From: Candidatus Uhrbacteria bacterium | Lineage (GTDB): Bacteria; Patescibacteriota; Patescibacteriia; UBA9934; GWF2-40-263 | Direction: 5' to 3' | Length of the DNA stretch: 64,000 nt | NCBI GenBank assembly: GCA_903843045.1 | Contig: CAIMOJ010000046.1 | Coordinates: forward strand, 650-64,649 | Shown: positions 19,145 to 49,799 of the stretch, one piece after another | Layout of the letters: every line of letters starts with the position of its first letter | How positions within the stretch are numbered: position 1 is the stretch's first letter | Position numbers and translations under genes: made by a program | The notes under the pieces: generated by a model | What the model saw: the letters and a program-made list of their open reading frames with translations, nothing else | Told to the model about the DNA's origin: nothing | The model's database searches: none

Positions 19145-19965
19145 TCGTCTTCGCCGCATTCACCCCGCACACCCCGCTTCTCCTTCCGCCCATCGGCAAG
19201 GATGCCCTCCAAAAAATGTCGTCAACGGCCGATGCCATGGATCGGCTCGGCGACGAGCTTCGCGAGGCGCGGCCCGACACGATCGTGATTATCTCCGCCC
19301 ATGCCACCCAGCATGACGGCGCTTTTTCGGCGAACCTGCACGACTCGTATCTCGTCGACCTCCGCGACTTCGGCGACCTCACCACGAGCGCGGAGTTCGA
19401 GCCGAACCTCTCTCTCATCGACGCGATCCAGCGCGCGGTTCGTCGCGCACAAATCCCCTTCACCCTCGACTCGGACTCGACGCTCGACTACGGCACCGCC
19501 GTTCCGCTCGTCGCGCTCGGCGCCAACCACCTGCTGCCAACGCTGAGCGTTGGCAGCAGCGACGGTTGCACGATCGTTCCGATCTCCTTCAGCAACCTTT
19601 CCGCGAAGGACCATTTCGCATTCGGAAAGACACTCAAGGACGTATTTGCAAATCGCAAGGAACGCATCGCCGTCATCGCGTCCGGCGATCTGTCTCATGC
19701 CCTCACTTCTGACGCACCGGCCGGCTACCGACCTGAGGGCGAAATTTTTGATTCTGCCGTCCGACAGGCGGTCGTCCAGGCAAGCGCGTCCCAGCTGCTT
19801 ACGCTCGACGAAGAGACCGTCGAAACGGCGGAGGAATGCGCCTATCGCCCCCTGCTCGTCCTCTTCGGAATCCTCGACCAAATTCCGGCGAGTCCGGAGG
19901 TGCTCTCCTACGAGCACCCATTCGGCGTCGGCTATCTCGTGGCGCAGTTCCGTCTCGACAAATAA
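19141..19965 (+). CDS. MEMO1/AmmeMemoRadiSam-B-like (LigB-type extradiol dioxygenase fold) protein
   Basis: 274 aa; DTIVIISAHATQHDG and GDLSHALT segments typical of the class III dioxygenase/Memo fold; 4-nt overlap with the upstream gene; carries a family C palindrome. Confidence 0.5.
   Translation: MIVFAAFTPHTPLLLPPIGKDALQKMSSTADAMDRLGDELREARPDTIVIISAHATQHDGAFSANLHDSYLVDLRDFGDLTTSAEFEPNLSLIDAIQRAVRRAQIPFTLDSDSTLDYGTAVPLVALGANHLLPTLSVGSSDGCTIVPISFSNLSAKDHFAFGKTLKDVFANRKERIAVIASGDLSHALTSDAPAGYRPEGEIFDSAVRQAVVQASASQLLTLDEETVETAEECAYRPLLVLFGILDQIPASPEVLSYEHPFGVGYLVAQFRLDK
19531..19559. repeat. Palindromic element family C copy (29-nt perfect palindrome, in frame, encodes LLPTLSVGSS)
   Basis: ctgctgccaacgctgagcgttggcagcag. 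Confidence 0.6.
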
Positions 19966-19978
19966 TTCTCTCTGTCTG

Positions 19979-20051
19979 TCATTGCGAGGAGGTCTCAACC
20001 GACGAAGCAATCCCACGAGAGATTGCTTCGGCCTGATGGCCTCGCAATGAC
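19979..20051. repeat. Nested inverted repeat / structured element between the MEMO-like gene and priA
   Basis: Outer 12-bp IR gtcattgcgagg...cctcgcaatgac; inner 10-bp IR cgaagcaatc-N9-gattgcttcg. Confidence 0.4.
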
Positions 20052-20065
20052 GGACGATTCGAACT

Positions 20066-21943
20066 GTGATCGCGGAAATCTATCCAATCAAACGCATGCC
20101 GCGCCGGTTCGACGTTTTCGACTATCAGATCCCGGCCGGCATGAACCTCACTCGCGGATCCGGCGTCCGGATCCCGTTTCGGTTTGGAGAAATGCGCGGA
20201 ATCGTGGCGCATGTAACCGACGGCGCAGGACGCGGAAAGACGATAAAGCCGGTCTCCGCGATCCTGTCGGACCTTTCGATGACTGACGACGAGCTCTCGT
20301 GCTTCGAGGACGTCGCGTTCGACACGGCGCAGAGCGTTTCCGCCGTTCTCCACGCGACGATCCCGATCCCGGGAAAACGACTCGTTTCGCCCCCCTCTCC
20401 TTCAAAAGGAGAGGGCCGGGGTGAGGTCTACGTCTCGCCACTCACCATCTCTGCCCGCGAAGCCCCGCAAATCTCTCAGGTCGTCACGGAACTCTCCACC
20501 CGGTCCGAGGCGTTTGTCGCCATTCCTGACCTCAAGCGCGCCGCCGTCCTCATCGCGACCTACCGCCGTGACCACCCGACCGAACCCATCCTCGTCCTCG
20601 CGCCGAACGTTCGCGATGCGCGTCTCCTCGCGTCCCGACTCGCCGGAAACGAGACGGTCGTCGTGACCGGCGAGGAGTCCCCGGCCGAGCGCTTCCGCCG
20701 CTGGAAGCTCTGGCGCGGCCGGAAGACGGGTCTCCTCGTCGGTTCCCGCATGGCAGCCCTTTGGACGCACCCGACGCTCGGCGCGGTATTCCTCGTACGC
20801 TCGGGACACCCCAACCATAAGCAGAACGACCGCAATCCACGCTTCGACGCGCGATTCGTGGGACAGGTTCTCCATGAACGGCTTTCCGCCAAGCGCTTTC
20901 ACCTCGACGTCATGCCAAGCACCGAGGATCTCGTCGGCTTCGGCGCGGCGAACCTTCTCGGCTCGACCGCGCGACCGGAGACGATCATCGCCGACATGAC
21001 GATCGAGCGCGCCGGCTCTCCACACCCTTGCCTCGGCAACAGCCTCGTCATCGAAGTCGCCCAGACGCTCGCCGAGAACCGCCGCGTCATTTGCGCCTAC
21101 AACCTGAAGGGCGTGTCCCGACGACTGCAGTGCGCAGACTGCGGGCACCGGTTTCCGTGCGAGAATTGCGGAGGCGTCCTCGCCCCGTACGTGACCACGG
21201 TCCAATGCCACCGATGCGGACGAACCGAGCCGCTGCCGACCTCCTGCCCCGCATGCCACAAGAACAAACTGACGCCGAAAGGATTTGGAAATCGCGCGGT
21301 CGCTGCGGCCCTCCAGTCGGCGTTCCCCGAGGCAACCGTCGCCTGCCTCGACCGGGACACGGACGTGGATGGCGCGAAGGACGCGGACATCCTCGTCGTT
21401 ACGCGCCATTACGTCGAGAACGTCTTTGACCCGTTTCACCCGCCGGACGTCGGTCTCGTCGCCGAGCTTGAGGGAGACCGGTCCTTGTTCGAGCCGTCCT
21501 ACCGCGCCCTCGAGAAATCCCTGCTCAACGCCGAGGAGTGGCGCGGAATCGCCCACGCCTGCCGCGCGAGGTTCCTCATCCAGACCGAGATGCCCGATCT
21601 GTTCCGCAACGCCCTCTCGCAGCCGGAAAAGGCCCTTCTCGACGACCTTGCCATCCGCAAGTCCTACGCCCAGCCGCCGTATGTCCGCGCCATGACCGTC
21701 GACTTCAAGCCCGACGAGCCGGACGAACAAGCCCGAGGAATCGCAAAGGCCATCGAAGCTATCCGCGCCGTCTCCCCGTCGACGGACATCGCCAAGCTCC
21801 CCTCTCCTTTAAAAGGAGAGGGTCAGGGTGAGGTCTACGCCTCTCTACGTCTCACCGTCCCCCCGTCCGACGAGCGCGCCGTTCTCCAGGCCTTTTCCCC
21901 GCTCGACGACTCGTATATCATTGACACAAGGCCGTTGGAATGA
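20066..21943 (+). CDS. priA: Primosomal protein N' (PriA)-like, apparently lacking a canonical Walker A
   Basis: PriA-type Cys-rich zinc-binding region (CADCG..CENCG..CHRCG..CPACH), PriA-like 3'BD and C-terminal regions; two in-frame family A insertions. Confidence 0.55.
   Translation: MIAEIYPIKRMPRRFDVFDYQIPAGMNLTRGSGVRIPFRFGEMRGIVAHVTDGAGRGKTIKPVSAILSDLSMTDDELSCFEDVAFDTAQSVSAVLHATIPIPGKRLVSPPSPSKGEGRGEVYVSPLTISAREAPQISQVVTELSTRSEAFVAIPDLKRAAVLIATYRRDHPTEPILVLAPNVRDARLLASRLAGNETVVVTGEESPAERFRRWKLWRGRKTGLLVGSRMAALWTHPTLGAVFLVRSGHPNHKQNDRNPRFDARFVGQVLHERLSAKRFHLDVMPSTEDLVGFGAANLLGSTARPETIIADMTIERAGSPHPCLGNSLVIEVAQTLAENRRVICAYNLKGVSRRLQCADCGHRFPCENCGGVLAPYVTTVQCHRCGRTEPLPTSCPACHKNKLTPKGFGNRAVAAALQSAFPEATVACLDRDTDVDGAKDADILVVTRHYVENVFDPFHPPDVGLVAELEGDRSLFEPSYRALEKSLLNAEEWRGIAHACRARFLIQTEMPDLFRNALSQPEKALLDDLAIRKSYAQPPYVRAMTVDFKPDEPDEQARGIAKAIEAIRAVSPSTDIAKLPSPLKGEGQGEVYASLRLTVPPSDERAVLQAFSPLDDSYIIDTRPLE
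20392..20446. repeat. Palindromic element family A, copy 2 (in frame in priA: SPPSPSKGEGRGEVYVSPLT)
   Basis: cccctctccttcaaaaggagagggccggggtgaggtctacgtctcgccactcacc. Confidence 0.75.
21799..21856. repeat. Palindromic element family A, copy 3 (in frame near the priA C-terminus: LPSPLKGEGQGEVYASLRLT)
   Basis: cccctctcctttaaaaggagagggtcagggtgaggtctacgcctctctacgtctcacc. Confidence 0.75.
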
Positions 21944-21962
21944 TATTATTTCCGCCAATCCT

Positions 21963-22436
21963 ATGATCGTCCTCACGAATCCAAACCCCGAACTTCGCGT
22001 CCGATCCGTCGAGATTCCCTCGTCGGACATTGCTTCGGATCGTCTCAAGGCGATGATTGTCGACCTGAAGAGGACGATGAGGGAGGAAAACGGCTGCGGC
22101 ATCGCCGCGCCGCAGGTTGGGATCCACGAGCGCGTGATCATCGTCGACGACGGTTCGGGCCCGAAGGCATACATCAACCCGGAGATCGTCTCAAAGTCGT
22201 TCGCCACGTTCCTGTTCGAGGAGGGATGCCTGTCCGTACCGGGCGTCTGGGGCATGGTCAAGCGGCACAAGTCCGTAAAGGTCATGGCGATCGGAGAGGA
22301 CGGCAAGCCCGTAAAGATCTCCGGAAAGGGACTTCTGTCCGTCATCTTCCAGCATGAGATCGACCACCTCAACGGTGTCCTGTTCATCGACACGGTCCAG
22401 AAGATTACCCGCATGCCGAACAACTCAATCCTCTGA
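21963..22436 (+). CDS. def: Peptide deformylase
   Basis: Motifs GIAAPQVG, EGCLSVPG, QHEIDHLNG; the real start is MIVLTNP, internal to the 21828 ORF. Confidence 0.85.
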   Translation: MIVLTNPNPELRVRSVEIPSSDIASDRLKAMIVDLKRTMREENGCGIAAPQVGIHERVIIVDDGSGPKAYINPEIVSKSFATFLFEEGCLSVPGVWGMVKRHKSVKVMAIGEDGKPVKISGKGLLSVIFQHEIDHLNGVLFIDTVQKITRMPNNSIL

Positions 22437-22452
22437 TCCGCATTGTACTTGT

Positions 22453-23430
22453 ATGATTCGCATTGCGTTCTTTGGAACCCCCGAGTTCTCCGTCCCATTT
22501 TTAACGGCCCTTGTCGACGACCCCGCATTCGAGGTCGTCGCTGTCGTTTCACAGCCCGATCGTCCGTCCGGACGCAATCACGAGATCGTCCCGACCCCGG
22601 TCAAATCCGTCGCGCTGGACCACCAGATTCCGGTCCTGCAACCTTCGACCCTGCGCGATGAATCCGTCGCGACGACGCTTCGCTCCCTTGATGCGGACTA
22701 CTTTGTCGTGGTCGCCTATGGCAAGATCATCCCGCAGGCCGTCCTCGACGTCCCGCGGCTCGGCTGCGTCAACGTCCATCCTTCCCTCCTGCCGAAGTAC
22801 CGCGGCCCGTCCCCGATGAACTGGGCGATCGCGGAGGGCGACGCGACCACCGGCGTCACGATCATGCTGCTCGACGCGGGGATGGATACCGGACCGATCC
22901 TGTCCCAGACGAGCATCGGCCTTGATTCCGACGAGACGATGGAAACGCTCATGGCCAAGGCGCACGAGCAGGGCGTCCCGCTCCTCGTCGACGCGCTCAA
23001 GCGATTCGCGGCAGGCGAGATCGTCCCCGTCGCGCAAAACGACGAGCTCGCGACGATGACGAAGCTGCTCGACCGCGACGACGGCCGCGTCAACTGGACG
23101 CTTCCCATGGCAACGATCGAGCGACGCCTGCGCGCCTACCAGCCCTGGCCGGGACTCTGGACCGTCTGGACCCGCACGCTCCCCTCTCCTTTAAAAGGAG
23201 AGGGTCAGGGTGAGGTCTACGTCCGTTTGAAGATCCATTCCCTCCAACCGTCCGACTTCCGCGCCGACCTTCCGCCCGGAACCGTCTCAACGAAAAACAG
23301 TCGACTCTTCGTCGACTGTTCGGACGGGACGATCGAGATCCTTGAACTCCAGCCGGAAGGAAAACCCCGAATGTCCGCGGAAGCGTTCCTCCTGGGCTAT
23401 TCCGACGTGAACGGCGCCATGCTTGGCTGA
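22453..23430 (+). CDS. fmt: Methionyl-tRNA formyltransferase
   Basis: Formyltransferase N-domain (FFGTPEF...HPSLLPKYRG) and C-terminal domain; carries an in-frame family A insertion. Confidence 0.85.
   Translation: MIRIAFFGTPEFSVPFLTALVDDPAFEVVAVVSQPDRPSGRNHEIVPTPVKSVALDHQIPVLQPSTLRDESVATTLRSLDADYFVVVAYGKIIPQAVLDVPRLGCVNVHPSLLPKYRGPSPMNWAIAEGDATTGVTIMLLDAGMDTGPILSQTSIGLDSDETMETLMAKAHEQGVPLLVDALKRFAAGEIVPVAQNDELATMTKLLDRDDGRVNWTLPMATIERRLRAYQPWPGLWTVWTRTLPSPLKGEGQGEVYVRLKIHSLQPSDFRADLPPGTVSTKNSRLFVDCSDGTIEILELQPEGKPRMSAEAFLLGYSDVNGAMLG
23181..23221. repeat. Palindromic element family A, copy 4 (in frame in the fmt C-domain: LPSPLKGEGQGEVYV)
   Basis: cccctctcctttaaaaggagagggtcagggtgaggtctacg. 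Confidence 0.75.
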
Positions 23431-24947
23431 AGCGCGCCGGAAGCGACGACAACCGAATCTGAAACGGGAACCTTCTGCGTCGTCGCGGGAGGTTTTTGGT
23501 TGAGGAACGGAACGACGAACAGAAGCAGTCCGAGGCCAAGCGGGTGGTTGAGATATGGCGAGGTAACGTGCGTCGCGTACAGCATGGCAAGACACGAGAT
23601 CAGCGCGACGGCAACCCAGGACTGACTCGTTCGCAACGTCGGCCAGAGCCCGCGAACGAGGCCGACGAACAGGAACGCGAAGGCGAGCGGGCCAAGCAGG
23701 CCCATCTTCAACCACAGCTCCAGCCATCCCCATTCGAGCGAATACGTCGTCCAGGTCCCGTCCGGATGGATGGCACGGGCGCGCGGATCGTCGGTCTTGA
23801 ACGTGATCTCCTGGCCGAACCCGCTGCCGAGTGCGACGTGTTCCTTGATTTGGGCCATCAGCGGCGGAAGCAGGTTCCAACGGCTGGAGATGGCCACGTC
23901 GGAGATATCCGTCGTTCGGCTCGAGACAAGACCGGTGAGATCGCTGACCCGGCCGACGCGATATGGCAACGGAAACAGGACGATCCCCACGAGCAGGATG
24001 CCCGCCCCGATCGTTGCGACCGCGACCGAGCCGAACGCCTTCCCCGCGACCTTCGTTCCCGGCCACCCATCGGCGAACTTCAGGACGACGAACGCGAACG
24101 CGCCGACGATAATCCCAAGCCAGAAGCTGCGCGACAGGCTGATGATGACGACGGATCCGATCCCCACGAGCAACAGCGTCACGGTGCGATAGGCGCGCTT
24201 CGGAACGTCGCGGAGGAATAGGAACGGCATGAGGAAGAACGCGAACGCGATCACGGAAAACTGGGCCTGAAGGAAGACGCGGAAGATGTTCCCCGCCATC
24301 TTGGTCAGCTCGCCGGTACGGGTGTCACGGATGAACAGGTAGACGGCGCCGAGCATCCACTCCGGAAAGTGCGTGAAGACATAGAGGAGGCCAAGCGAAA
24401 GGATCGTCACCCAGGCGGCGGAGGCGGCGAGGACCTGGAGGAGAAGCCGCTTCTTGGTCACGTCCCAGTCGACGCAGAGGACTGGAAACAAGTAGCCAAG
24501 GTAAAGATACGCGTTTCCGTCCTTGAACGCCGTCGTCGGGTCGTGCAGCAGGAACCCGATGACGAATCCGATCGCGACGGCGACGAAGAGCGGAACGAAC
24601 GGGGTCAGTCGCGAATCTCGCAGCGACAGCCGAACGCGTCGCGTAACGATCGCCAGAACCCACGCGGCCATGACGGCAACGAAGACGGCCATGCGGGACG
24701 AAAAGGAGAACCCGTGAATGTCGTACGCGATCAGATGGCCGTGCGAGTTGGCGAACAGCTCGGCGAAGGCGACGAGGAGTCCGAGGTCGAGGCGCTTCCA
24801 GGTGATCGCGAAGATGGCGACCATCGAGACGGCAAGCGCGACGGCGGAGGCGATCGGGAACGGAAAGACGGCGATCGAGACCGCAAAGACTCCGGCGAGG
24901 ACGCCAAGCGTGATCCAGAAGGGCTTTCCAAAGAATTGGTCGAACAT
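23397..24947 (-). CDS. O-antigen ligase / Wzy_C-family polytopic membrane protein
   Basis: 516 aa, ~12 TM helices, periplasmic loop with ISLSRSFWLG-type signature. Confidence 0.5.
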   Translation of the reverse strand: MFDQFFGKPFWITLGVLAGVFAVSIAVFPFPIASAVALAVSMVAIFAITWKRLDLGLLVAFAELFANSHGHLIAYDIHGFSFSSRMAVFVAVMAAWVLAIVTRRVRLSLRDSRLTPFVPLFVAVAIGFVIGFLLHDPTTAFKDGNAYLYLGYLFPVLCVDWDVTKKRLLLQVLAASAAWVTILSLGLLYVFTHFPEWMLGAVYLFIRDTRTGELTKMAGNIFRVFLQAQFSVIAFAFFLMPFLFLRDVPKRAYRTVTLLLVGIGSVVIISLSRSFWLGIIVGAFAFVVLKFADGWPGTKVAGKAFGSVAVATIGAGILLVGIVLFPLPYRVGRVSDLTGLVSSRTTDISDVAISSRWNLLPPLMAQIKEHVALGSGFGQEITFKTDDPRARAIHPDGTWTTYSLEWGWLELWLKMGLLGPLAFAFLFVGLVRGLWPTLRTSQSWVAVALISCLAMLYATHVTSPYLNHPLGLGLLLFVVPFLNQKPPATTQKVPVSDSVVVASGALQPSMAPFTSE

Positions 24948-24957
24948 ACACGAGGGG

Positions 24958-25803: not shown

Positions 25804-26501
25804 AGGCGGTGCTTCGTCGCGATAATCGTTCTGGCCTCGTCGTAGCGTCGAACCGACGACGGCCTCCAGCCAAGCCGGTGCCATGGAATCCGATAGATGA
25901 ACGACGGACGCCACTGGGAGATGCCCGGGCGGTCGGATCGGTCGATGACCTGGAACAGCTCACGGCCGACGAACGTCCCCGCATGGCCCCGCTCGAGCAT
26001 CGTGAGCCAGACATCCCAATCCTGGAAGCGCCTGATCGACGGGTCGAACCCGGGGAAATGCTCGCGGCGGACGAGCGACGTCGTGTGGACGAAGTTCATG
26101 CGGCGGAGTCGGTCCTCGTCGAACGAAAAGGACGAGAATGACTTCCAGCCGAATCGAAACCCGCTGTACGCGTAGCTCGCCTCCGGATGGTCGACAAGCG
26201 CCCGTTCCATCGTCGCGAGCATGTCCGGCGCCATGACCACGTCCGCGTCGCAGAAGATCACGAGGTCGCCGGTCGCCCGCGCGAACCCATTGTTCCGCGC
26301 GACGTTCCCGCCCTGGTTCGACTGCGTGACGATCGTGACGCGATCGGCAAACGCGGCGAGGACGCGTTCGGTCTCGTCCGTGCTGCCGTCGTTCACGACG
26401 ATGATCTCGTCGGGCTTCCGCGTCTGAACAAAAAGAGAGTTCAGGCACTCCGAGAGCGTCTTCGCGTGCTGGTAGGACGGGATGATGACGGAGATCGTCA
26501 C
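25800..26501 (-). CDS. GT2-family glycosyltransferase
   Basis: VIIPSYQHAKTLSECLNSL...VVNDGSTD...CDADV. Confidence 0.7.
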   Translation of the reverse strand: MTISVIIPSYQHAKTLSECLNSLFVQTRKPDEIIVVNDGSTDETERVLAAFADRVTIVTQSNQGGNVARNNGFARATGDLVIFCDADVVMAPDMLATMERALVDHPEASYAYSGFRFGWKSFSSFSFDEDRLRRMNFVHTTSLVRREHFPGFDPSIRRFQDWDVWLTMLERGHAGTFVGRELFQVIDRSDRPGISQWRPSFIYRIPWHRLGWRPSSVRRYDEARTIIATKHRL

Positions 26502-27583
26502 AGATATTCCTTCAATTTCTCAAGCTGTCTTTCGTTCGTAAACTCGTCGGCAGCCCGCCGATAGGCCGCTTCGCCCAGCCGCTGCCGTTCCGCGTCGCTC
26601 ATGGCCAGAAGATACACCGCGTCCGCGAGCGCCGCAATGTCCCCGTCCTTGACGAGAATGCCGGTTATTCCGTCGAGAACAGCCTCGTCGACGCCCCGCA
26701 TGTCCGTCGCAACCGACGGGACGCCGTGCAACGCGGCCTCGAGATACACCATGCCGAATCCCTCGCGGTCGACGGAATCCGCCACGACCGGCTCGACGAA
26801 TATGTCGGCGGCGGCGTAATGGTCGGAGAGCTGATCGTCGGCCACGTCGCGAGCGATCGTCACGCGGTCGTCGAGACCGAGCTCGGAGATGCGTCGCGCG
26901 ATCGTCTCGAGATAAGGCCCGTCGCCGACGATGTCGTATCGAATGTCGATCGCCGGCCACTGGCGGCGAAGCAATGCCATCGCGTCGAGAACGCGGACGT
27001 GTCCCTTGCGCGAGACGAGCCTTGCCACGGTCAGCAGGTTTACCGGACCGATCGCTCCAAGCATCCCAGCCCCCGGTCCCCTGACTCGTTTCCTCTCCTC
27101 ATAGGGAGGAGGGGTCAGGGGTGGTTGACGCGCTTCGACCGTCGGATACACGACAATCGTCCTCCTTACCCCAAACTCTTCTCTCACTTCCCTCTCCAGC
27201 GCCTTCGAGTTCGCGACGACAACCTTCGCCCCGCGCAGAACCATCCCCGCGACGATTCGCTTCATCCATCGCGTCTTCGCAAGCCCGACATCCATCCCAT
27301 GGACGATCACGACGTACGGCGTGCCCGTCATCCATCGGAAAACCATCGCCGCCGTCCCGATCGGAAGGACATGGCTAACCACGATCTGACTACCAACGCT
27401 TGGCATCGGTAGCAAACGTCGATCGCGAACAAACCGTCGAAGCGCCTGCCACCACCTGGTGGACGGATCAACAACCGTCACTTCCATCGAATCAGAAAAA
27501 TATGCGGTGAGATTCCCGAGATATCTTGCGACTCCGCCCCGCGATGGCGCGTAATCAGTCGTGTATAGCCGTGTCTTCGGCAT
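26498..27583 (-). CDS. GT4-family glycosyltransferase (GT-B fold)
   Basis: C-terminal EX7E motif (EGFGMVYLEAALHGVPSV); inter-domain linker carries a palindromic insertion and the N-domain a family C copy. Confidence 0.7.
   Translation of the reverse strand: MPKTRLYTTDYAPSRGGVARYLGNLTAYFSDSMEVTVVDPSTRWWQALRRFVRDRRLLPMPSVGSQIVVSHVLPIGTAAMVFRWMTGTPYVVIVHGMDVGLAKTRWMKRIVAGMVLRGAKVVVANSKALEREVREEFGVRRTIVVYPTVEARQPPLTPPPYEERKRVRGPGAGMLGAIGPVNLLTVARLVSRKGHVRVLDAMALLRRQWPAIDIRYDIVGDGPYLETIARRISELGLDDRVTIARDVADDQLSDHYAAADIFVEPVVADSVDREGFGMVYLEAALHGVPSVATDMRGVDEAVLDGITGILVKDGDIAALADAVYLLAMSDAERQRLGEAAYRRAADEFTNERQLEKLKEYL
27077..27120. repeat. Imperfect G/C-rich palindrome related to family A, in frame in the GT4 linker (QPPLTPPPYEERKRVRGPG)
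   Basis: cccctgactcgtttcctctcctcatagggaggaggggtcagggg. Confidence 0.5.
27397..27426. repeat. Palindromic element family C copy (in frame in GT4, encodes LLPMPSVGSQ on the minus strand)
   Basis: ctgactaccaacgcttggcatcggtagcaa. Confidence 0.5.
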
Positions 27584-29027
27584 AGGCGGTCTTTCGACGG
27601 ATAAGCCGCATGATGGCGGCAAAATGATGCTTTTGGACAGACCGGGACAACACGAGCATGACGGCATAGACGAATGCCGCGAACGGAAGAGCGAGGTAGA
27701 ATCCCGTCTCGGGACGAACGAGGCGCGTGGCGAATCCCATGGCGGCGGCGGAACAAATGATCGGAACGGTCGTCCTCATCAGTCGCGCGAACCCGTATTC
27801 CGGGATCACCCGGGGAACGAACCAGAAGCCGGCGACGAACAGGAAGGTGAAGCTGATCACGCCGGAATAGGCGGCTCCGAGGATTCCGAACGTCGGAATC
27901 AGGAAAAAGTTGCATATCACGTTGATGACCATCGTCACGCCCATCACCGCGGTCTTCGTTGCCTGCCGATTCGCGGCATTCAGGAGCGAGCCGACGGGAA
28001 AGTCGAGGAAGATGGGAATGAGGACGAAGATGAGGACCGCGAGTACCGGCGCGGCGTTCGCATACCCGTCCCCGGCAAGCGCGATCGCGTCCCCGGCAAC
28101 GGCCCAGAGACCGAACGCGATCGGGGCCGCGAGAATCGTCACGTACCAGACGGCCTCGTCGAACAGTCGCGTCAGGCCTTCCGTGTCCTTCTTCCCCACC
28201 ATCGCGCTCATTCCCGGATACAGCGCGGCGACGAATGCCATCGGGAGGAACTGGAACGCGTACGTGAACTTATAGGCCACGGCATAGACGCCGACCGCTG
28301 CGGTTCCGACGACCTTGGAGATGATGAGCGAATCGACGTACGAGTAAACCTTCACGAACATCCCGGCGAGGGCAAACGGGAGCGCGGCGAGCAATAACGA
28401 TCGAATCGCCTCTTTGTCGAATCTTGGTCGAAGAACGTTCCAGCCATAGATCGCAACGACATGGCGCGCGGAATAGAAGGCGTTGAACGTCGAGCCGACA
28501 AGGAGCGCGAGGACGAGTAGATGAAGCGACGGGTGCGTCAGAAGGACGATCCCGCCGAACAGGAGCGTGCACGTCTGTCCCACGAAGATCCCGAGCGACT
28601 CGAACCGCAGCGTGTGGTGTCCGCGCAGGACGCCGTAGAACAATAGGCTCATCGCGTCAGCAAGCATGACAAGCGACGCCACGAGGACGAGCTCGCGAAC
28701 GGTCGCATCGTATCCCAGCGCCCATGACATCGCCACCGCCCCGACCGTCGCCAGTACCATGAACGGAATCTTCAGCCAGACGGCCCGTCGGATCAGGTCC
28801 GCGGCGCGCTCCGGAACCTTCGCGACGTCGCGAATCACCACCGGCGTCACGCCAAGGTCGGTGATCGTCGAAAAGATCGTCGTAATCGAAAGCGCGAGGA
28901 AGTAATCCCCCGTCGCCTCGGGCCGCATCACGCGCGCGAGCAACAGGAAATAGAAGAACGCGAGGATCTTCTGCGCGATGGACGCGGCGGTGAGATAGAG
29001 GGTATTTTTTGCGACGGGCGAGGACAT
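27555..29027 (-). CDS. Wzx-type (MOP superfamily) polysaccharide flippase
   Basis: 490 aa, ~14 TM helices; N-terminal pattern typical of polysaccharide biosynthesis protein family. Confidence 0.65.
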   Translation of the reverse strand: MSSPVAKNTLYLTAASIAQKILAFFYFLLLARVMRPEATGDYFLALSITTIFSTITDLGVTPVVIRDVAKVPERAADLIRRAVWLKIPFMVLATVGAVAMSWALGYDATVRELVLVASLVMLADAMSLLFYGVLRGHHTLRFESLGIFVGQTCTLLFGGIVLLTHPSLHLLVLALLVGSTFNAFYSARHVVAIYGWNVLRPRFDKEAIRSLLLAALPFALAGMFVKVYSYVDSLIISKVVGTAAVGVYAVAYKFTYAFQFLPMAFVAALYPGMSAMVGKKDTEGLTRLFDEAVWYVTILAAPIAFGLWAVAGDAIALAGDGYANAAPVLAVLIFVLIPIFLDFPVGSLLNAANRQATKTAVMGVTMVINVICNFFLIPTFGILGAAYSGVISFTFLFVAGFWFVPRVIPEYGFARLMRTTVPIICSAAAMGFATRLVRPETGFYLALPFAAFVYAVMLVLSRSVQKHHFAAIMRLIRRKTAYAEDTAIHD

Positions 29028-29030
29028 AGG

Positions 29031-30776: not shown

Positions 30777-30800
30777 TTTACCCTCTTTCTTCCCTTCCCA

Positions 30801-30838
30801 CAAACCAAAAACCGGTCCGACACATCGTCGGACCGGTT
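30801..30838 (-). terminator. Intrinsic terminator of the ribosomal protein/rpoA operon
   Basis: Minus strand aaccggtccgacgatgtgtcggaccggtt followed by tttggttt. Confidence 0.55.
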
Positions 30839-30849
30839 CGATATTCTTT

Positions 30850-31254: not shown

Positions 31255-31255
31255 A

Positions 31256-31615: not shown

Positions 31616-31619
31616 AGGA

Positions 31620-31970: not shown

Positions 31971-31978
31971 ACAAGTGT

Positions 31979-38174: not shown

Positions 38175-38177
38175 AGA

Positions 38178-40827: not shown

Positions 40828-40832
40828 AACGT

Positions 40833-41279: not shown

Positions 41280-41281
41280 AT

Positions 41282-42673: not shown

Positions 42674-42722
42674 GGTTGGCTCCACGATTGACGTCCGTCC
42701 CATTTCCTGATATTCTCCCGCC

Positions 42723-43607: not shown

Positions 43608-43633
43608 TCGATACGAAAGGTAAACGACCCCGC

Positions 43634-44320
43634 TTATGGCGAGGTCGTTTTGATTTCCGAGACTTCGAATCCGCGGAGCGCGCTGTCGAACGACGCGTCC
43701 GCGGCCGGTTTCAGCGTGACGGAGAGGATGAGCGGGTTGTCCGCGTTCTTGAGGACGAGATACTCCGCGAACCAATTCGATGCCTTGAGCGCGTCGACCT
43801 TTTGGAGCGTGCCGTCGACGCGAACCCAGGCGGTGGTCGCCAGGTCGTCCGTCTTGATCGTGAGCACGTCGGTCGCAGTCGGCAGGTCAGGCGCCGTCTG
43901 GTTCACGCTCGACAGGAACGATTTCACCGAGTCCGTCCACGCAAGCGCGCCAGAGATCGTCGTGTCGAGAAGTCCAAGGCTCAGGGTCGTGCTTCCGCCC
44001 GTCACAAGCCCGTCGTACTGCGCGGACGACAGGACGAACTGTGACTTCGACGTGTCCACGACCATCGCGCCCGTCTGCCAGTCGTTCGCCTTCTTCCAAG
44101 ATAATGTCGCGTCCGTCGTCGCAACCCGTTCGCTGAGCACGACCGTCTGCGCCTCCGTCCCCGCCCCGAACCACTCCGCGATCTTCCCGCCGATCCCAAG
44201 GACGGTCTCTCGGATCGTCAGCGTGTCCCCCGCCCCCACGGTCAGCGACGTCGACGGAGCGGACGAGCAGCCCGCGCCGACGAGAACGATCATCGCGACG
44301 ATCGCGGCAAGCCGTCTCAT
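43634..44320 (-). CDS. Lipoprotein (hypothetical)
   Basis: Signal peptide + lipobox (LVGAGCSS); start MRRLAAIV. Confidence 0.45.
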   Translation of the reverse strand: MRRLAAIVAMIVLVGAGCSSAPSTSLTVGAGDTLTIRETVLGIGGKIAEWFGAGTEAQTVVLSERVATTDATLSWKKANDWQTGAMVVDTSKSQFVLSSAQYDGLVTGGSTTLSLGLLDTTISGALAWTDSVKSFLSSVNQTAPDLPTATDVLTIKTDDLATTAWVRVDGTLQKVDALKASNWFAEYLVLKNADNPLILSVTLKPAADASFDSALRGFEVSEIKTTSP

Positions 44321-44580
44321 ACCTTTTTCCCGTTCGCCCACTTGCGAATCACATCCTCATCTTCCTCCCCGCAGATGAACTGCTTCGATTCCGTGTTGTA
44401 GAAAAATGGAACACCGCCGCACAGCCCGCGGTCGATCGTTTCCATCCGCTCGGCATTCTCCTTATTATGCCAGGTTTCCAGCTTCTCGATGGCAATCCCT
44501 TCCTTGATCAGCCTGTCGATCATCGGCATCATCTTCAGGCAGTGACCGCATTCGGAACCGTAGAACTCCAACAAGGCCAT
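44317..44580 (-). CDS. Glutaredoxin/thioredoxin-like small protein
   Basis: CGHC active-site motif in thioredoxin-fold context; 87 aa; 4-nt overlap with the downstream lipoprotein gene. Confidence 0.55.
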   Translation of the reverse strand: MALLEFYGSECGHCLKMMPMIDRLIKEGIAIEKLETWHNKENAERMETIDRGLCGGVPFFYNTESKQFICGEEDEDVIRKWANGKKV

Positions 44581-44616
44581 ATAGGGAAAATCGATGGGTT
44601 ATGCTAGGATTCTAAC

Positions 44617-45291
44617 ATGAAATACGCCCCGCATGCCATTTTCCTCGCCTTGGTCGCGATTCTCCTCGTCGGTGCCCGCTTTGGATTTGCGTGGGCGGGG
44701 GGTTCCGGACACGTGTCTACGCTCTCGGTCTTTCTCCAGGACGCGACCGGGCCGGTGACCGCGGAACGGAACGGGGTCGTCCGAACGCTTGCCCTCGATG
44801 ACAGGATCTACCGCGGGGAAACGATCGCGACGGCGCCGGGGAGCTTCGCCCAGCTCACGATCAGCGACTTCTCGCACATCGTCACCGTCGGGATGGACGA
44901 ACGGACGTCTCTGACCGTCGACGCGCTCACCGTCACGAAACCCGAGCTGTTCCTGCATGGCGGCCGCATCGAGACGTTCATGGACGGGACCGTCGACGGT
45001 CTCAACGTTCGAACGAACTTCACGAGATCCTCGCTTGGCAAGGGACGCGCGTCGTTCGTCAACTATGATTTCAAGGAGGCGGTCGCGATCGTTCCAATCG
45101 TCGGATCGGTGACGACCACCGCGACGAAGACGGACGAGACCAGAACGACGGCGACGGCGATCGGCATCCACGAGACGGACCCCGTCGCGTTCGACGAGAT
45201 CGGATTCAACCGGGACGCGGCGACGGTCAAACCGTTTTACGACTGGATTGAAACCCGGTTCGGACTCGAGGCGTTCGAGATCAAACAATAA
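44617..45291 (+). CDS. Secreted hypothetical protein
   Basis: Signal peptide; no recognisable catalytic motif. Confidence 0.35.
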   Translation: MKYAPHAIFLALVAILLVGARFGFAWAGGSGHVSTLSVFLQDATGPVTAERNGVVRTLALDDRIYRGETIATAPGSFAQLTISDFSHIVTVGMDERTSLTVDALTVTKPELFLHGGRIETFMDGTVDGLNVRTNFTRSSLGKGRASFVNYDFKEAVAIVPIVGSVTTTATKTDETRTTATAIGIHETDPVAFDEIGFNRDAATVKPFYDWIETRFGLEAFEIKQ

Positions 45292-46336
45292 TCCCGCCAC
45301 CGATCATCTCTTCCCCGTCGTAGAGGACGATCGACTGGCCAGGCGTGACGGCACGGACGGGTTCGTCGAATTCGACGGTGACTGAGTCCGCATCGGTCGC
45401 GACGATCGAACATGCCTGCAACGGCTGTCGATACCGAACGCGGGCGGAGATCTTTTCTCCGACGATTGGCTGACGGAACCAGTTCGTGGACGTCGCGACG
45501 AGTTTCTTTTCAAACAGTGCCGGATGGAAATTGCTCGAGACGATGAGCTGCCTCGTCTCGGGTTTTTTGTCGACCACGTAGTACGGCGTCCCTCCCCCGA
45601 CGTTCAGCCCGTGCCGCTGGCCGATCGTGTAGAACGCGACCCCCTCGTGCGTCCCCACCACTTCCCCGCCCGTCGTGACGATCTCGCCCGGATCCTCGGG
45701 AATGCGCTCCTTTAAGAATGCGCGGATGTCGACTTCCCCAACGAAACAGATCCCCGTCGAATCCTTCTTCTCCGCCGTCGACAACCCAAGCTCGCGCGCC
45801 TTCTCGCGCACCTCCGGCTTCGTCATCGCGCCAACCGGAAACAACACGCGCGGCAGCACGCTCTTCGGGATCGCCCAGAGAAAATAGGTCTGATCCTTGT
45901 TGTCGTCCGTCCCTGCAAGGATTCGTCCGTCGACGATCCGCGCGTAATGCCCCGTCGCGACGAACGCGCAGCCGAGACGGTCCGCCTCTTTGACGAACAG
46001 GTCGAACTTCACATACTTGTTGCACAGCACATCCGGATTCGGCGTCCTTCCTGCGGCGTATTCCTGGTACAAGTTCTCAACAACCAATTCGCGATATTGC
46101 TTCTCAAAGTCGAACGTCACGAACGGAATCCCAAGCTTCGCCGCCACCCGCATCGCGTCTCGCCGCTCCGTCCTCCATCCGCATTCCTTCGTCTCGCCGT
46201 CGCACTTGATCTCCGTCCAATTCTTCATGAACGCCCCGATCACCTCGTACCCCTGCTCCAACAGCAACGCCGCGGCCACGGACGAATCCACGCCGCCGGA
46301 CATGCCGAGCAGGACTTTCTTGCGAGCTTCTTCCAT
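45281..46336 (-). CDS. mnmA: tRNA-specific 2-thiouridylase MnmA
   Basis: PP-loop LLGMSGGVDSSV, catalytic cysteines, C-terminal barrel; start MEEARKKV. Confidence 0.85.
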   Translation of the reverse strand: MEEARKKVLLGMSGGVDSSVAAALLLEQGYEVIGAFMKNWTEIKCDGETKECGWRTERRDAMRVAAKLGIPFVTFDFEKQYRELVVENLYQEYAAGRTPNPDVLCNKYVKFDLFVKEADRLGCAFVATGHYARIVDGRILAGTDDNKDQTYFLWAIPKSVLPRVLFPVGAMTKPEVREKARELGLSTAEKKDSTGICFVGEVDIRAFLKERIPEDPGEIVTTGGEVVGTHEGVAFYTIGQRHGLNVGGGTPYYVVDKKPETRQLIVSSNFHPALFEKKLVATSTNWFRQPIVGEKISARVRYRQPLQACSIVATDADSVTVEFDEPVRAVTPGQSIVLYDGEEMIGGGIIV

Positions 46337-46416
46337 ATGATTTCCGGAGTTTGCCACAGATTTGGCCAATTGACAATCGTCCGATCCCATTGGATACTTA
46401 TCGCAGAGGTCGAACC

Positions 46417-46827
46417 ATGGAACCAAAGCTCATTCTGATCGTCTGCCCAAAGACCCACCAGCCCTTCTTCGAACGGTCGCTTCGCGAGGCGCTCGACAAG
46501 GAGCGCATCCGCTACGTCTTCGCCCACTGCGACACCGTCGCCGATGCCGCCAAGACCATGGACCAGGCGGGATATCCGGATTTCGTCGTCTGCGTCAAGG
46601 ACGCAAGTTCCGCGGACGCGTACTTCGACCTCCTGCGAAAGGTCCGCCATGCCGGGGAGTCGATGCCGTTCGTCGTCTGGAACGCGTCGTTCTCCCCCGA
46701 AGCCACCGAGCTCATCGCCAGCCTCAGCGGCCTCACCGTCTCCCTGGACAAGCCCGGCGCCCTCGCCCGCCTCAACCGCTACGCCACGACTCTCCTCCAC
46801 GGCCAGCGCCGCAAGCAGGCGTCCTGA
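46417..46827 (+). CDS. Hypothetical protein, weakly receiver (CheY)-like fold
   Basis: MEPKLILIVCPK... alternating beta/alpha pattern; no phospho-acceptor consensus. Confidence 0.3.
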   Translation: MEPKLILIVCPKTHQPFFERSLREALDKERIRYVFAHCDTVADAAKTMDQAGYPDFVVCVKDASSADAYFDLLRKVRHAGESMPFVVWNASFSPEATELIASLSGLTVSLDKPGALARLNRYATTLLHGQRRKQAS

Positions 46828-46881
46828 CCTCGATTCGTCGAGGTCTTTTCATTAAAAAAGCCCGGCGCGTGACGTCGGGCT
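46826..46881. terminator. Back-to-back intrinsic terminators for convergent genes
   Basis: + strand gacctcgattcgtcgaggtc+ttttc; - strand agcccgacgtcacgcgccgggct+tttttt. Confidence 0.5.
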
Positions 46882-47314
46882 AGTCGGCAAGGTCGTTCCA
46901 CTCCTCGAAGGACACCTCTTCCTCGTCGAGGACGTTAAAGATCAGGTTGAACGCGAAGTGCTCGCAGAAGGCGCGGCGTTCCAGATCATGGTCATCGAAC
47001 CTGCAGTGCGCGGTAAACTTGTTCGCGGCCACGTTTCCCTTGCAGAGCGGCCGGTCGCCGCCTATGTCCACCACCAGCCAGACTTCCGAGAACAGGGCGT
47101 CCTCCTGGTGGCGGAATGAGACAATCTGCATGGAGACGACAGTCGGAAACCGTTCGATCGCGGGAAACGGGAGTTCGCATTTCATACGCCGGATCGCCAC
47201 GCATGCGTACTCAAAATCGGCTGCCGACCGTGGCCGCTGGGTAGAGACCATCCGGTAATACTCGGGGAATCCGTCGTTCGCCCAGGCGAGCAGTTGCGTT
47301 TTGGTAATGGTCAT
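46880..47314 (-). CDS. Hypothetical protein (~144 aa) downstream of the ATPase terminator
   Basis: Likely start MTITKTQLLAWANDGFPEYY; no known domain. Confidence 0.3.
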   Translation of the reverse strand: MTITKTQLLAWANDGFPEYYRMVSTQRPRSAADFEYACVAIRRMKCELPFPAIERFPTVVSMQIVSFRHQEDALFSEVWLVVDIGGDRPLCKGNVAANKFTAHCRFDDHDLERRAFCEHFAFNLIFNVLDEEEVSFEEWNDLAD

Positions 47315-47402
47315 TGAGCACCGGGAAAGAGCATGCGGAGAGAGTGACAGAAATCGAGAAGATTGTCCATGCGGGTTGACGAGACGGCCACCCGACAAAA
47401 AA

Positions 47403-47462
47403 CGAACGGGACTAAAGTCCCTGGAAAACTCGATGAGTTCCCAGGGACTTTAGTCCCGTTCG
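47403..47462 (-). terminator. Exceptionally long intrinsic terminator (approx 29-bp near-perfect stem with nested palindromes, loop GAT, T6 tract) after the ATPase gene
   Basis: cgaacgggactaaagtccctggaaaactc gat gagttcccagggactttagtcccgttcg; minus-strand T-tract ttttttg. Confidence 0.65.
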
Positions 47463-47468
47463 CGGGGC

Positions 47469-49799
47469 TTAGTCGAACTTGATCGTCTGACCGGAGTAGA
47501 CCGTGCCGGACTTTAGCGGGACCCAGCCGTCATTGTCGTCGGACGGCGGAGGAGTTGGAACGACGGGGGCCGGAGTCGGTGGCTTCGGAGTTGGCGCGGG
47601 CGTCGTGACGGGAGCCGGAACCGGAGCCGGGTTACTACCAACGCTCGGCGTTGGCAGCAACGGCTTGGGAGCGACGGGTTGTTGTGGATGTGAGTTGTTT
47701 GTAATTTGTGGCGTAGCGGACGGCCTCGGCTTCGGGCTTTGCAGAAACGCCTGGGGCGAGTTCGGGCCGCCGGTGCCCTTGTTAGGGCGCTTGCGGCGCG
47801 TGTCCTTGCCTGGGACGAAGGGGCGCGGTCCCGTCGCGGCCGGGGTTGGCTGTAATTGTCGCGGAGTCGACGGAGAGCCGTGCGTCGCGGCAACCGCGAT
47901 CGGCGCGGCTGGCGTAACCGTCGGGGGGCTGTTGAGCGGAGACGACAGCATCTGAGACATGAAGTCGGTCGCGGGCGCTGGCGTCGAGACGACGGGCTTT
48001 GGCGCGACGACCACCCCTGACCCCTCTCCCACCGTCGGGCGGGATCCCGCCAACGGCGGTGACTGCCTATCAGGAGGGGAAACGTGCTTGATGACCGGAG
48101 CTGCCGGAGGCCTGGCGACTGGGGCCAATGCGGTGAGCGATACGGACGGCGCGGGACGAGGGGCCGCGACAACGGGAACGCTCTCAACCACGGTCCTTCG
48201 AGTTGTCTCAGGGCGATCTTGAGAGATCGGCGGCGGGGGCGGCGACGGAGGACGTCTCGTGTCCTTGCGGTCCTTCCCCTTCGCGCGTTCCTCCTTCACG
48301 ATCTCGATGCATTCCTCGCAGTAAATCGGACGACTCGTGTCGAGCTGAACTGCGAGCGCGATGTCCTTGTTACAGCGCGAACACTTGTAGTCGAACCTCG
48401 GTTTCTTCGCGCCCTTCGCGTCTTTTTTCTTCTGCTCCATCTCCGCGACCATCTTCCCGATGGACTCGTCGTCTCCCATCCCCGTCCACTTCATGATCTT
48501 GTCCGCGATCTCCTCGCGCGGCGTCGTGTACCGCTCGCGGCTCACCTTGATCACCTTCTCTTCCGATCCCGTCCTTTTGGCAATCGGCGGGAGCGTCTGA
48601 GCCGAGAATGGCTGGCTCGTAACGCCGTCGATGAGAAGCTTCAAATAGATGTTGTACTTGGGAAGGTTGATGATGTCCTCCGGCAAAAAGCGCGGCGCGA
48701 ACTCCGTTTCCATGTATGCGGCGTCCGGCGAACCGACGCGGAACGTAACGATCGTTCCGACGTTTCCAAACACGGCCTCGCGCACCTCGTCGGAGAGCTG
48801 GGCAATGTATTGGTGGGCCATCGTCAGGCACAGGCGGTACTTGCGCGCCTCGGATAGGATTCCGGCAAACGATTCCGTCGCGAAGTTCTGGAACTCGTCC
48901 ACGTACATATAAAAATCCTTGCGCTCGTGCTCCGGCTGGTCCACGCGTTCCATGGCCGACAGCTGCAGCTTCGTGATCAGCAGACCGCCGAGCAGGCGCA
49001 TGTTGTCCTCGCCGATGCGGCCCTTCGACAGGTTGATGATCAGGATCTTCTGCTCGTCCATCAGCTGGCGGATGTTGATGGTCGACTTTACCTGCGCGAC
49101 GATATTGCGAATGACCGAGGCGGACAAAAACTGACCGATCTTGTTCTGGATCGGGGCCACGGCCTCCTGCGCGTACTTCTCCTGGTAGCTGGCGAATTCC
49201 ACCAGCCAGAACTGCTTCACCACCGGATCCTGCACGTTTGCGACGATCTTGCGTCGGAAGTCCGCATCGGACAGCATGCGGTTGATTCCAAGCAGCGTCG
49301 ACCCCGGGTTGTCCAAGAGCGCGAGGATCGCGTTGTTCAGGATGTACTCCATGCGCGCGCTCCAGAGGTTCTCCCAAAGCTTCTTGAACACGCCCATCAT
49401 TCCGGACGCGACCAGGTGCTTCGTCTTCTCGCTGACCGTCTCCAAGATGTTGAATCCGATCGGAAAATCAAGGTCGGCCGGATTGAAGTAGATGACGTCG
49501 TTTATGCGCCAGCTCGGGATATAGTCGATAAGCCGCTCGGCCGTGTCGCCGTGCGGGTCGATGTACGCGCATCCGTGGCCGGCATAGATGTCGGTAAGAA
49601 TGAGGTTTTCGAGCAGGACCGTCTTGCCCATGCCCGTTTTTCCGATCACGTACACGTGGCGGCGGCGGTCATCGGTCTTAACGCCAAATTTCCGCATCTG
49701 ATTGCGGAAATTGGTGCGTGCAAAGTAGTTTACCTCGTTCTCGTGATCGTGGGCGTAGCTCATACGGGAAGGTTCGGGGGAATACCGTCGTCGACCCAT
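47469..49799 (-). CDS. VirD4/TraD/TraG-like (type IV coupling protein or HerA/DUF87-like) P-loop ATPase with C-terminal zinc ribbon and ~280-aa Pro/Ala/Thr-rich tail
   Basis: Walker A VIGKTGMGKT, Walker B FYMYVDEFQNF, coupling-protein-type LTMAHQYIAQL motif, CxxC-x17-CxxC ribbon (CSRCN...CEEC), low-complexity tail (PPSPPPPP, APVPAPVTTPAPTPKPP); alternative start 49763. Confidence 0.7.
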   Translation of the reverse strand: MGRRRYSPEPSRMSYAHDHENEVNYFARTNFRNQMRKFGVKTDDRRRHVYVIGKTGMGKTVLLENLILTDIYAGHGCAYIDPHGDTAERLIDYIPSWRINDVIYFNPADLDFPIGFNILETVSEKTKHLVASGMMGVFKKLWENLWSARMEYILNNAILALLDNPGSTLLGINRMLSDADFRRKIVANVQDPVVKQFWLVEFASYQEKYAQEAVAPIQNKIGQFLSASVIRNIVAQVKSTINIRQLMDEQKILIINLSKGRIGEDNMRLLGGLLITKLQLSAMERVDQPEHERKDFYMYVDEFQNFATESFAGILSEARKYRLCLTMAHQYIAQLSDEVREAVFGNVGTIVTFRVGSPDAAYMETEFAPRFLPEDIINLPKYNIYLKLLIDGVTSQPFSAQTLPPIAKRTGSEEKVIKVSRERYTTPREEIADKIMKWTGMGDDESIGKMVAEMEQKKKDAKGAKKPRFDYKCSRCNKDIALAVQLDTSRPIYCEECIEIVKEERAKGKDRKDTRRPPSPPPPPISQDRPETTRRTVVESVPVVAAPRPAPSVSLTALAPVARPPAAPVIKHVSPPDRQSPPLAGSRPTVGEGSGVVVAPKPVVSTPAPATDFMSQMLSSPLNSPPTVTPAAPIAVAATHGSPSTPRQLQPTPAATGPRPFVPGKDTRRKRPNKGTGGPNSPQAFLQSPKPRPSATPQITNNSHPQQPVAPKPLLPTPSVGSNPAPVPAPVTTPAPTPKPPTPAPVVPTPPPSDDNDGWVPLKSGTVYSGQTIKFD
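47631..47660. repeat. Palindromic element family C copy (encodes LLPTPSVGSN in the ATPase tail)
   Basis: ttactaccaacgctcggcgttggcagcaac. Confidence 0.5.

Follow-up and report, generated by a model that had tools for sequence, protein, structure and literature searches.

A putative REP-like family of short palindromic repeats within and between genes of Candidatus Uhrbacteria

Repetitive extragenic palindromic (REP) sequences form families of 20–40 nt units with stems of 5–13 bp, and their subfamilies carry alternative, complementary stem residues (Di Nocera et al. 2013, PMC3733652). The units often occur in dimers and clusters, and intergenic copies lie near the 3' ends of open reading frames (ORFs). 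Repeat units were also found inside genes for known proteins, namely in Opitutus terrae and, as the short Rickettsia palindromic elements (RPEs) RPE-4 and RPE-6, in Rickettsia conorii (PMC3733652). Here we describe a short palindrome that can be compared with these repeats. It was noticed in a 64-kb stretch of a Candidatus Uhrbacteria genome (assembly GCA_903843045.1, contig CAIMOJ010000046.1, positions 650 to 64,649; this whole stretch is called the window below), where three copies are translated in frame in three unrelated genes.

Three palindromes in unrelated genes

The three window copies share the 29-nt palindrome YTRCTRCCAACGC-NNN-GCGTTGGYAGYAR. Its frame relative to the element is identical in all three genes, and the resulting peptide is LLP[T/M][L/P]SVGS. 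Copy 1 is indeed the perfect palindrome that a preliminary description of this DNA had reported, and the same peptide is obtained from either orientation, since the antisense strand of this copy again reads LLPTLSVGS. Its hairpin is lengthened by flanking CAACC/GGTTG to about 19523–19568, and its RNA fold reaches -33.4 kcal/mol (z -4.5). Copy 2 is a decayed palindrome in which nine of the 13 pairs are Watson-Crick, three are G:T and one is a mismatch; the stem of copy 3 has 11 Watson-Crick and two G:T pairs. By direct count, the pairwise DNA identities are 24/29, 24/29 and 19/29, so that the figure of about 80% given earlier is roughly right. Copy 2 had been placed at 27397–27426, which is 10–11 nt off (Table 1).

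A degenerate 29-mer search allowing up to three mismatches returned these three matches in the window and none in 100 dinucleotide-preserving shuffles. No further family copies or lone arms were found in the 64 kb. We also re-encoded each 10-residue peptide synonymously with the window's own codon usage; the observed degree of Watson-Crick pairing was reached with P = 5.7e-5, 0.012 and 0.0098. Both results speak against a frequency expected by chance, a possibility that the preliminary description had raised. As palindromy is so rarely reached by codon resampling, the symmetry of the DNA is the primary feature and the peptide a by-product.

The host proteins fall into unrelated Pfam families and their close homologues are without the block, which bears out the view that this is a repeated palindrome in three unrelated genes and not a shared protein domain. 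In the LigB-like protein, the element occupies residues about 131–140, between a helix and a strand. Residues 131–143 form a coil in the AlphaFold2 model, where confidence in the 131–140 block is low, with a mean predicted local distance difference test score (pLDDT) of 56. Copy 3 is placed in the proline-rich, low-complexity C-terminal tail of the TrwB/VirD4-like ATPase. For the GT4 gene, alignment with orthologues indicates that the true start is probably the methionine at 27583. The centre of most copies reads GCTNAGC (for example 19542–19548), the recognition sequence of BlpI/EspI-type restriction enzymes.

Table 1. Repeat copies, their host genes and other features of the window
Feature	Position	Strand	Description	Peptide or Pfam match
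Copy 1	19531–19559	+	perfect 14+1+14 palindrome CTGCTGCCAACGCTgAGCGTTGGCAGCAG	LLPTLSVGS(S)
Copy 2	27387–27415 (ten codons: 27386–27415)	-	sense strand TTGCTACCGATGCCAAGCGTTGGTAGTCA	LLPMPSVGSQ
Copy 3	47632–47660	-	sense strand TTGCTGCCAACGCCGAGCGTTGGTAGTAA	LLPTPSVGSN
Host gene 1	19141–19965	+	LigB-fold / AmmeMemoRadiSam system protein B-like, 274 aa	PF02900, E 2e-33
Host gene 2	26498–27667	-	GT4-family glycosyltransferase	PF00534, PF13692, PF13439
Host gene 3	47469–49799	-	TrwB/VirD4-like coupling-protein ATPase, 776 aa	PF10412, PF02534, PF12696
Second repeat family	27084–27137		GTTTCCCCTCCTCATAGGGAGGAGGGGTCAGGGGTGG, in GT4 gene	PLTPPPYEEGKR
CIRCE inverted repeat	15043–15077		TTAGCACTC-N9-GAGTGCTAA	
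clpB	15089–17719			
Spacer hairpin	51493–51521		AACGCTACGAATAaagTATTCGTAGCGTT (13+3+13, perfect)	
Spacer hairpin	30810–30838		AACCGGTCCGACacatcGTCGGACCGGTT	
Spacer hairpin	61469–61502		CAAAACCGCCCCGACGtgCGTCGAAGCGGTTTTG	

The family in related genomes

A scan of one genome per species (185,579 species) with the pattern CTRCCAACGCNNNGCGTTGGYAG resulted in 27 loci. The metagenome-assembled genome (MAG) Candidatus Uhrbacteria nzgw368 accounted for 23 of them, with 29 exact-pattern copies; one further locus came from Uhrbacteria ELA555 and three were unrelated singletons. A metagenome scan gave 12 singletons, one related (the ELA555 ortholog), and a viral scan with the element pattern gave no matches. 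The family thus extends beyond the three copies that had first been noticed, and it is restricted to a narrow clade within the Candidatus Uhrbacteria, which belong to the Candidate Phyla Radiation (CPR)/Patescibacteria.

In nzgw368 we counted about 45 copies (29 exact and about 15 variants) in roughly 160 kb of contigs, which were selected for carrying the element. The core in this genome is ACTRCCAACGC-TWA-GCGTTGGYAGT. A relaxed search (loci are given below by our L numbers) added variants with complementary arms, namely GTCAACAC/GTGTTGAC, CCAACAC/GTGTTGG and ACCACCAAC/GTTGGTGG. Subfamilies can be told apart by stem residues that remain complementary: ACTACC/GGTAGT versus ACTGCC/GGCAGT, the GTCAACAC/GTGTTGAC type, and ACCACC/GGTGGT. 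Besides singletons there are dimers or clusters at L004, L009, L013, L017, L025 and L026, the tight dimers having a spacing of 22–29 nt. Copy number is roughly tenfold apart between sister genomes.

Three other descriptions of this diversity were tried and rejected. The two L031 copies are 28/29 identical, as in a genome-specific dialect or under concerted evolution, but their variant ACCACCAACCCC also occurs in nzgw368 at L017_275, so that we are dealing with subfamilies, not dialects. A composite miniature inverted-repeat transposable element (MITE) built from a pair of copies with a distance of about 75 nt does not fit, because the spacers at L004 and L025 are unrelated. Universal homogenisation in nzgw368 would agree with the perfect copies in LigB, GT4 and TruB, but the ATPase-tail ortholog L017_275 has decayed.

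The arms of the element co-vary. In an alignment of 48 copies, 88.7% of the stem cells are paired and eight of the 13 pairs have changed on both sides; double-sided cells number 68, whereas shuffling yields 23.5 ± 7.1 and the observed value in none of 500 trials, with the reservation that these are paralogous copies in which a single change may count many times. Alternative residues include GC (22 copies) and AU (21) at pair 6/24, CG (40) and UA (7) at pair 7/23, and GC (34) and AU (7) at pair 12/18. The more telling evidence is provided by a single orthologous locus, the LigB site, where pairs 1/29, 3/27, 5/25 and 6/24 co-vary among the window, L033, L020 and L031. Pairing continues past the conserved flanking A...T in 18 of 32 copies.

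The distribution over genes and spacers gives no sign of a preference for coding sequence. According to a gene call based on the GC content of third codon positions (GC3), the window is about 92% coding, so that three copies out of three in genes is what chance would predict (0.92^3 = 0.78). Only 16 of the 29 exact copies in nzgw368 (about 55%) are located in real ORFs and 13 in true spacers, which is a depletion relative to coding density. The suggestion that short palindromes colonise coding sequence in this genome therefore stands insofar as in-frame read-through is concerned, for which a second translated family is also present (see below), and falls insofar as it implies enrichment in genes. 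The nzgw368 hosts are real enzymes (TruB, RecG, a P-type ATPase, CysS, Memo, GT2, GT4, a racemase and YfiH), with further genic sites in a PHP protein and a kinase linker. Intergenic copies typically follow a stop codon at a distance of 9–21 nt or shortly precede a start codon. We looked for genes split by stop-bearing copies, which would imply that the element is removed from the mRNA, and found none; the apparently non-coding copies are all situated in true spacers.

Among the 16 genic copies of nzgw368, 12 are read in frame 0 (xLPTLSVGSx), four in the frame that gives QRLAL, and none in the third. Frame 0 is the only one that is free of stop codons in every variant and in both orientations. 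The QRLAL frame is open only with a TTA centre on the sense strand, which is true of all observed cases, and the third frame meets a TAG in one orientation of the centre and another in the GGTAGT arm. Random insertion followed by purging of stops predicts a ratio of 9.1:4.6:2.3, from which the observed 12:4:0 does not differ significantly (chi-square about 3.3, 2 degrees of freedom). The regularity of the frame thus needs no targeting mechanism and is best explained by selection in the form of stop-codon purging.

Comparison with homologues indicates that the genic copies are additions and that those of the window are old. Element-bearing LigB proteins measure 274–275 aa, against 259–264 aa in the closest relatives and 262–263 aa in the wider family. 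The window copy has orthologous copies in L020, L033 and L031, and at L028 the left arm alone has been kept after a 30-nt in-frame deletion. In a LigB tree built without the loop, which has the limited resolution of a single short protein, proteins with and without the element are intermingled, and outgroups have a longer loop than the "empty" one (GARA); this suggests that the LigB copy has been deleted repeatedly. At the GT4 site, the element is present in the window and in nzgw368 (ortholog L015_1446), its place is taken in L029 by another palindrome (GTCGACAC tcg GTGTTGAC), and the L031 protein has no palindrome and is 6 aa shorter. In the neighbouring GT2, the window and L029 have an empty site, which is filled in L031 (+9 aa, LPPTPGVGG) and nzgw368 (+7 aa, STLGVD). 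Different subfamilies were thus found at the same loop positions across genomes at the LigB, GT4 and GT2 sites. In the ATPase tail, window copy 3 is orthologous to L017_275 of nzgw368 (LPPTPSVGNQ), and four additional copies are specific to nzgw368. The window and nzgw368 agree at only 62% of their four-fold degenerate sites, and yet all three window copies have orthologues in nzgw368; these copies are therefore old and not recent arrivals. Judging from these alignments, the gene copies are lineage-restricted additions in indel-variable surface loops or disordered tails.

Several surroundings of family members deserve mention in their own right. The TruB loop following the DTDDRTG motif is hypervariable in the clade: it contains the element dimer, a dimer of the GTCAAC variant, one of two unrelated insertions of 26–29 aa, or the native sequence, and it looks like a hot spot for insertion or replacement. 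The element dimer is perfect in nzgw368 and decayed at the orthologous site in L046 and L047. Next to the dimer-bearing truB of L046, between infB and truB (5959–7391), lie a pair resembling a diversity-generating retroelement (reverse transcriptase PF00078 and bAvd PF22296) and a Fic protein, which L047 does not have at the same place. L022 carries six hairpins of about 68 nt (333–400, 598–665, 1300–1370, 2594–2660, 3361–3430 and 4322–4390) with the outer stem CTCCCTTCCGCCGGCGA...TCGTCGGAAGAAGGGAG. Their apex is the 29-nt palindrome or its GTCAAC variant, and one of them folds at -47.6 kcal/mol. Each precedes a small ORF of the minus strand by about 40 nt, with a conserved leader that contains GGAG. 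We considered integron attC sites for this cassette-like array and rejected them, since the R''/R' boxes, compared by eye, do not fit. Finally, the intergenic copies at L003 (4059–4100) and L012 (956–1000) are immediately followed by TTTYGGTTGACA with a -35-like TTGACA and, about 17 nt past it, a -10-like box; in both cases the element is situated exactly 66 nt upstream of the next gene.

How the repeat may spread

These sequences belong to a lineage-specific family of short stem-loop DNA repeats (25–29 nt, sometimes extended) in a narrow Uhrbacteria clade. We consider it probable, with some reserve, that the family is of the REP or short-RPE kind, and that it would propagate at the DNA level, be filtered by selection and be tolerated when translated. 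A trans-acting activity would recognise the apical CCAACGC-NNN-GCGTTGG as a hairpin and copy the element as DNA, and new copies would insert at more or less any position of the genome, about 92% of which is coding. Those that fall inside a gene would persist only if they create no stop and the protein tolerates the extra residues. The frame xLPT(L/P)SVGSx would then dominate as the one that is open in all variants and orientations and rich in the loop-friendly residues P, T, S and G. Later, a copy could drift, become partly symmetrical again (through conversion from other copies or template switching within the hairpin) or be deleted, as expected for unstable palindromes. The three window copies would be old survivors of such a process of spread and purge. 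A function for the host would not be required, and intergenic copies may act as RNA or DNA hairpins.

A number of observations weigh against this interpretation. REPs are predominantly extragenic, whereas more than half of the Uhrbacteria copies are intragenic (16/29 in nzgw368 and 3/3 in the window). The GTAG of REPs linked to REP-associated tyrosine transposases (RAYTs) is only partly present, in about half of the copies (as GGTAGT), and there it is located inside the paired stem, opposite CTAC, and not at the end of the unit; the remaining copies have GCAG or GTGG. A tblastn search with approximate RayT and IS200 TnpA queries resulted in nothing below E = 0.4 in 267 kb of partial genomes, so that the family differs from REPs in that no RAYT or REPtron was found for it. 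Pfam searches detected no transposase domain in 30 window ORFs and about 16 nzgw368 ORFs, a weak test given that the genomes are partial; the 30 window ORFs are ordinary housekeeping genes (ribosomal proteins, RpoA, GreA, Era, MnmA, SecF, Alr, Fmt and others). In comparisons between genomes that are not near-identical, net changes of +6, +7, +9, +10 and +13 aa leave the boundaries and the unit length approximate. No target-site duplication is visible, the flanks being complementary or unrelated but never direct repeats. The TruB dimer (LLPTLSVGSMNYQRLALE) replaces 15 native codons by 17 instead of adding about 20 residues. Finally, five of 33 copies (L001, L013_744, L016, L022_354 and L025_7905) have arms that extend perfectly by 8–12 nt into copy-specific flank, each of which would arise by chance with a probability of about 6e-5. 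Plain insertion of an element of constant length does not account for these arms. Such extensions could result from insertion into the loops of pre-existing hairpins or from outward perfection by template switching (PMC8794818, PMC3820800).

One alternative takes these last observations as its starting point. The element could spread by copying and overwriting (through ectopic conversion, hairpin-templated synthesis or a process linked to a reverse transcriptase), thereby rewriting coding stretches and re-perfecting old copies. We regard this as doubtful, but keep it open because of the TruB replacement, the exchange of subfamilies at the LigB, GT4 and GT2 sites and the 8–12 nt extensions. If true, it would constitute a previously undescribed source of indel variation in the loops of CPR proteins.

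It is unlikely that the palindromes are instead landmark or operator sites, that is, 11-nt half-sites with a 3-nt spacer that are bound as duplex by a dimeric protein. Sites of this kind (parS, the Noc-binding sites NBS, the SlmA-binding sites SBS and matS) occur in tens of copies, with a macrodomain-restricted distribution, and are often located inside genes. The copy number of the Uhrbacteria element is likewise in the tens, its inner core TRCCAACGC/GCGTTGGYA is strongly conserved, and of 12 orthologous comparisons at the synonymous third positions of CCA, ACG, AGC and GTT, 11 show identity, the background being 62% (P about 0.04). In TruB, moreover, the sequence overlays native codons with almost no change in length. 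However, most gene sites are net additions of 6–13 aa. Complementarity is also kept where the sequence itself varies and reaches into unique flanks in the five extended copies, which argues for a folded single strand over a duplex site. Tight dimers fit such binding poorly at their short spacing, and so do the gap in copy number between sister genomes and the repeated loss of orthologous sites. To our knowledge, the element bears no resemblance to the parS consensus.

The palindromy might also be kept by selection for RNA hairpins in transcripts, which could serve as mRNA stabilisers, RNase III sites, translational pauses or terminators. High stability is predicted for the element hairpins (-24 to -36 kcal/mol, z -3.9 to -9.2); folded as sense-strand RNAs, they reach -24 to -33 kcal/mol (z -3.9 to -5.3), and the flanks contribute a few extra pairs. 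The stems co-vary, and intergenic copies are found just past stop codons, with a T run behind one of them (L013_744). Of the six arm mismatches in the window, five are G:T on the sense strand and none is A:C. Across all coding copies, however, G:T is not favoured (11, against 20 A:C), which led us to reject selection for a sense-strand RNA. The window pattern can be traced to drift in GC3, with TTA becoming TTG at the first Leu codon, and the asymmetric centre of frame-0 copies shows no bias in orientation (4:4). The repeated loss of sites in close relatives also speaks against a selected transcript structure. The layout of an intrinsic terminator was not found: the window copies are all internal to genes, and L013_744 is the only one of 13 intergenic copies with a T run. 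Rfam 15 gave no matches at gathering score in the window, L001, L013 or L022 (so that there is no tRNA in the window at that score). Taken together, we judge a selected RNA hairpin to be improbable.

Less probable still are motifs resembling DNA uptake sequences, which uptake bias and recombination would have spread in a CPR bacterium with natural competence. The machinery for competence is generally encoded in CPR genomes, and such motifs could account for the sequence variants between genomes, the genic copies in the least harmful frame, the hairpins formed by intergenic copies after genes and the TruB overlay without a change in length. Yet the window has only one copy per about 20 kb, and the nzgw368 contigs, which were selected for the element, have about 45 in 160 kb; most sites are length additions. 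An accidental likeness of the three sites, or a short peptide motif or domain common to them, can be dismissed: only the shared peptide supports it, and besides the shuffles, codon resampling and unrelated Pfam families described above, the same DNA occurs in intergenic spacers and in other reading frames.

Other repeats and comparison with known systems

The window and its relatives contain further repeats and features. A second translated family of about 45 nt, GTTTCCCCTCCTCATAGGGAGGAGGGGTCAGGGGTGGTCGTCG, has a core hairpin CCCCTCCTC atag GGAGGAGGGG and reads RRPPLTPPPYEEGKR. Its window copy is located in the same GT4 gene as copy 2 (Table 1). Elsewhere it was observed four times in 20 kb at L029 (3461, 11226, 11480 and 17850), at L031 (18028) and L019 (4833), and in L015, L017 and L026, as well as in nzgw368 TruB and upstream of the ELA555 PEP-utilising enzyme. 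A CIRCE inverted repeat (the HrcA operator) stands directly upstream of clpB and not of groES or dnaK. Also upstream of clpB, L031 has a type I restriction-modification island (1–5830; HsdR, HsdS, HsdM and DUF3800), the counterpart of which in L029 (1–5822) and in the window consists of housekeeping genes (PGI, M23 peptidase, a GlnS/GluS-type synthetase and WecG). Strong hairpins in short spacers, three of which are listed in Table 1, number ten in the window, against two to six in each of five shuffles.

The CPR/Patescibacteria have very small, gene-dense genomes that are usually described as repeat-poor. In this Uhrbacteria clade, at least two short hairpin-repeat families are tolerated in core enzymes (TruB, RecG, CysS, glycosyltransferases and the coupling ATPase). 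Such elements account for some of the unexplained short insertions in CPR proteins and can mislead homology-based annotation; their copies are markers for the typing of strains and species in metagenomes. They also provide a natural system for REP-like movement without an obvious RAYT and for the persistence or loss of palindromes inside genes.

Some known repeats are clearly of another kind. A MITE has terminal inverted repeats, an interior of 50–500 bp and a direct target-site duplication, whereas the Uhrbacteria unit consists of two arms and a centre of 1–3 nt. DNA uptake sequences and uptake signal sequences (DUS/USS) measure 9–12 nt, are non-palindromic and occur about once per kb, in contrast to three palindromic copies in 64 kb with no lone arms. 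The coding palindromes of Nematomorpha mitochondria (PMC6649704) and the PARCEL elements (PMC2996958) are likewise inverted repeats that are translated within genes. They differ in that the former reach 284 bp and the latter are amphipathic repeat units of more than 100 bp; both come from other genomes, and neither forms a dispersed 29-nt family. Template switching and the correction of quasi-palindromes (PMC8794818, PMC3820800) could yield compensatory double changes and outward extension of arms, both of which were observed here. They explain how a hairpin is kept up and extended, but not why the same 25-nt core is found at dozens of unrelated loci.

The closest likeness is to the GTAG/CGTC-tagged REPs and the short RPEs. 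With REPs, the family has in common the short stem-loop unit, subfamilies with complementary stems, the occurrence as singletons, dimers and clusters and the variable abundance between related genomes. Intergenic copies are close to the 3' ends of ORFs in both, and some units are read through within genes of known proteins. We would therefore place the family in a REP/short-RPE-like class; membership among the RAYT-dependent GTAG-REPs proper is unproven. A full-text literature search found no description of such elements in CPR/Patescibacteria, and as far as could be found, this phylum is a new host for hairpin repeats of the REP/RPE-like type.

There is no sequence relationship with the RPEs. 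RPE-1 measures 100–150 bp and the short RPEs are CGTC-tagged, whereas the Uhrbacteria unit of 25–29 nt has no CGTC terminus and is also common in intergenic spacers. What the two have in common is the setting: palindromic repeats that lie in frame in housekeeping genes of a small, gene-dense genome and whose proteins are presumed to be functional. They even have a host gene in common, since the truB of R. conorii carries an RPE (PMC3733652), so that TruB is a host in both systems.

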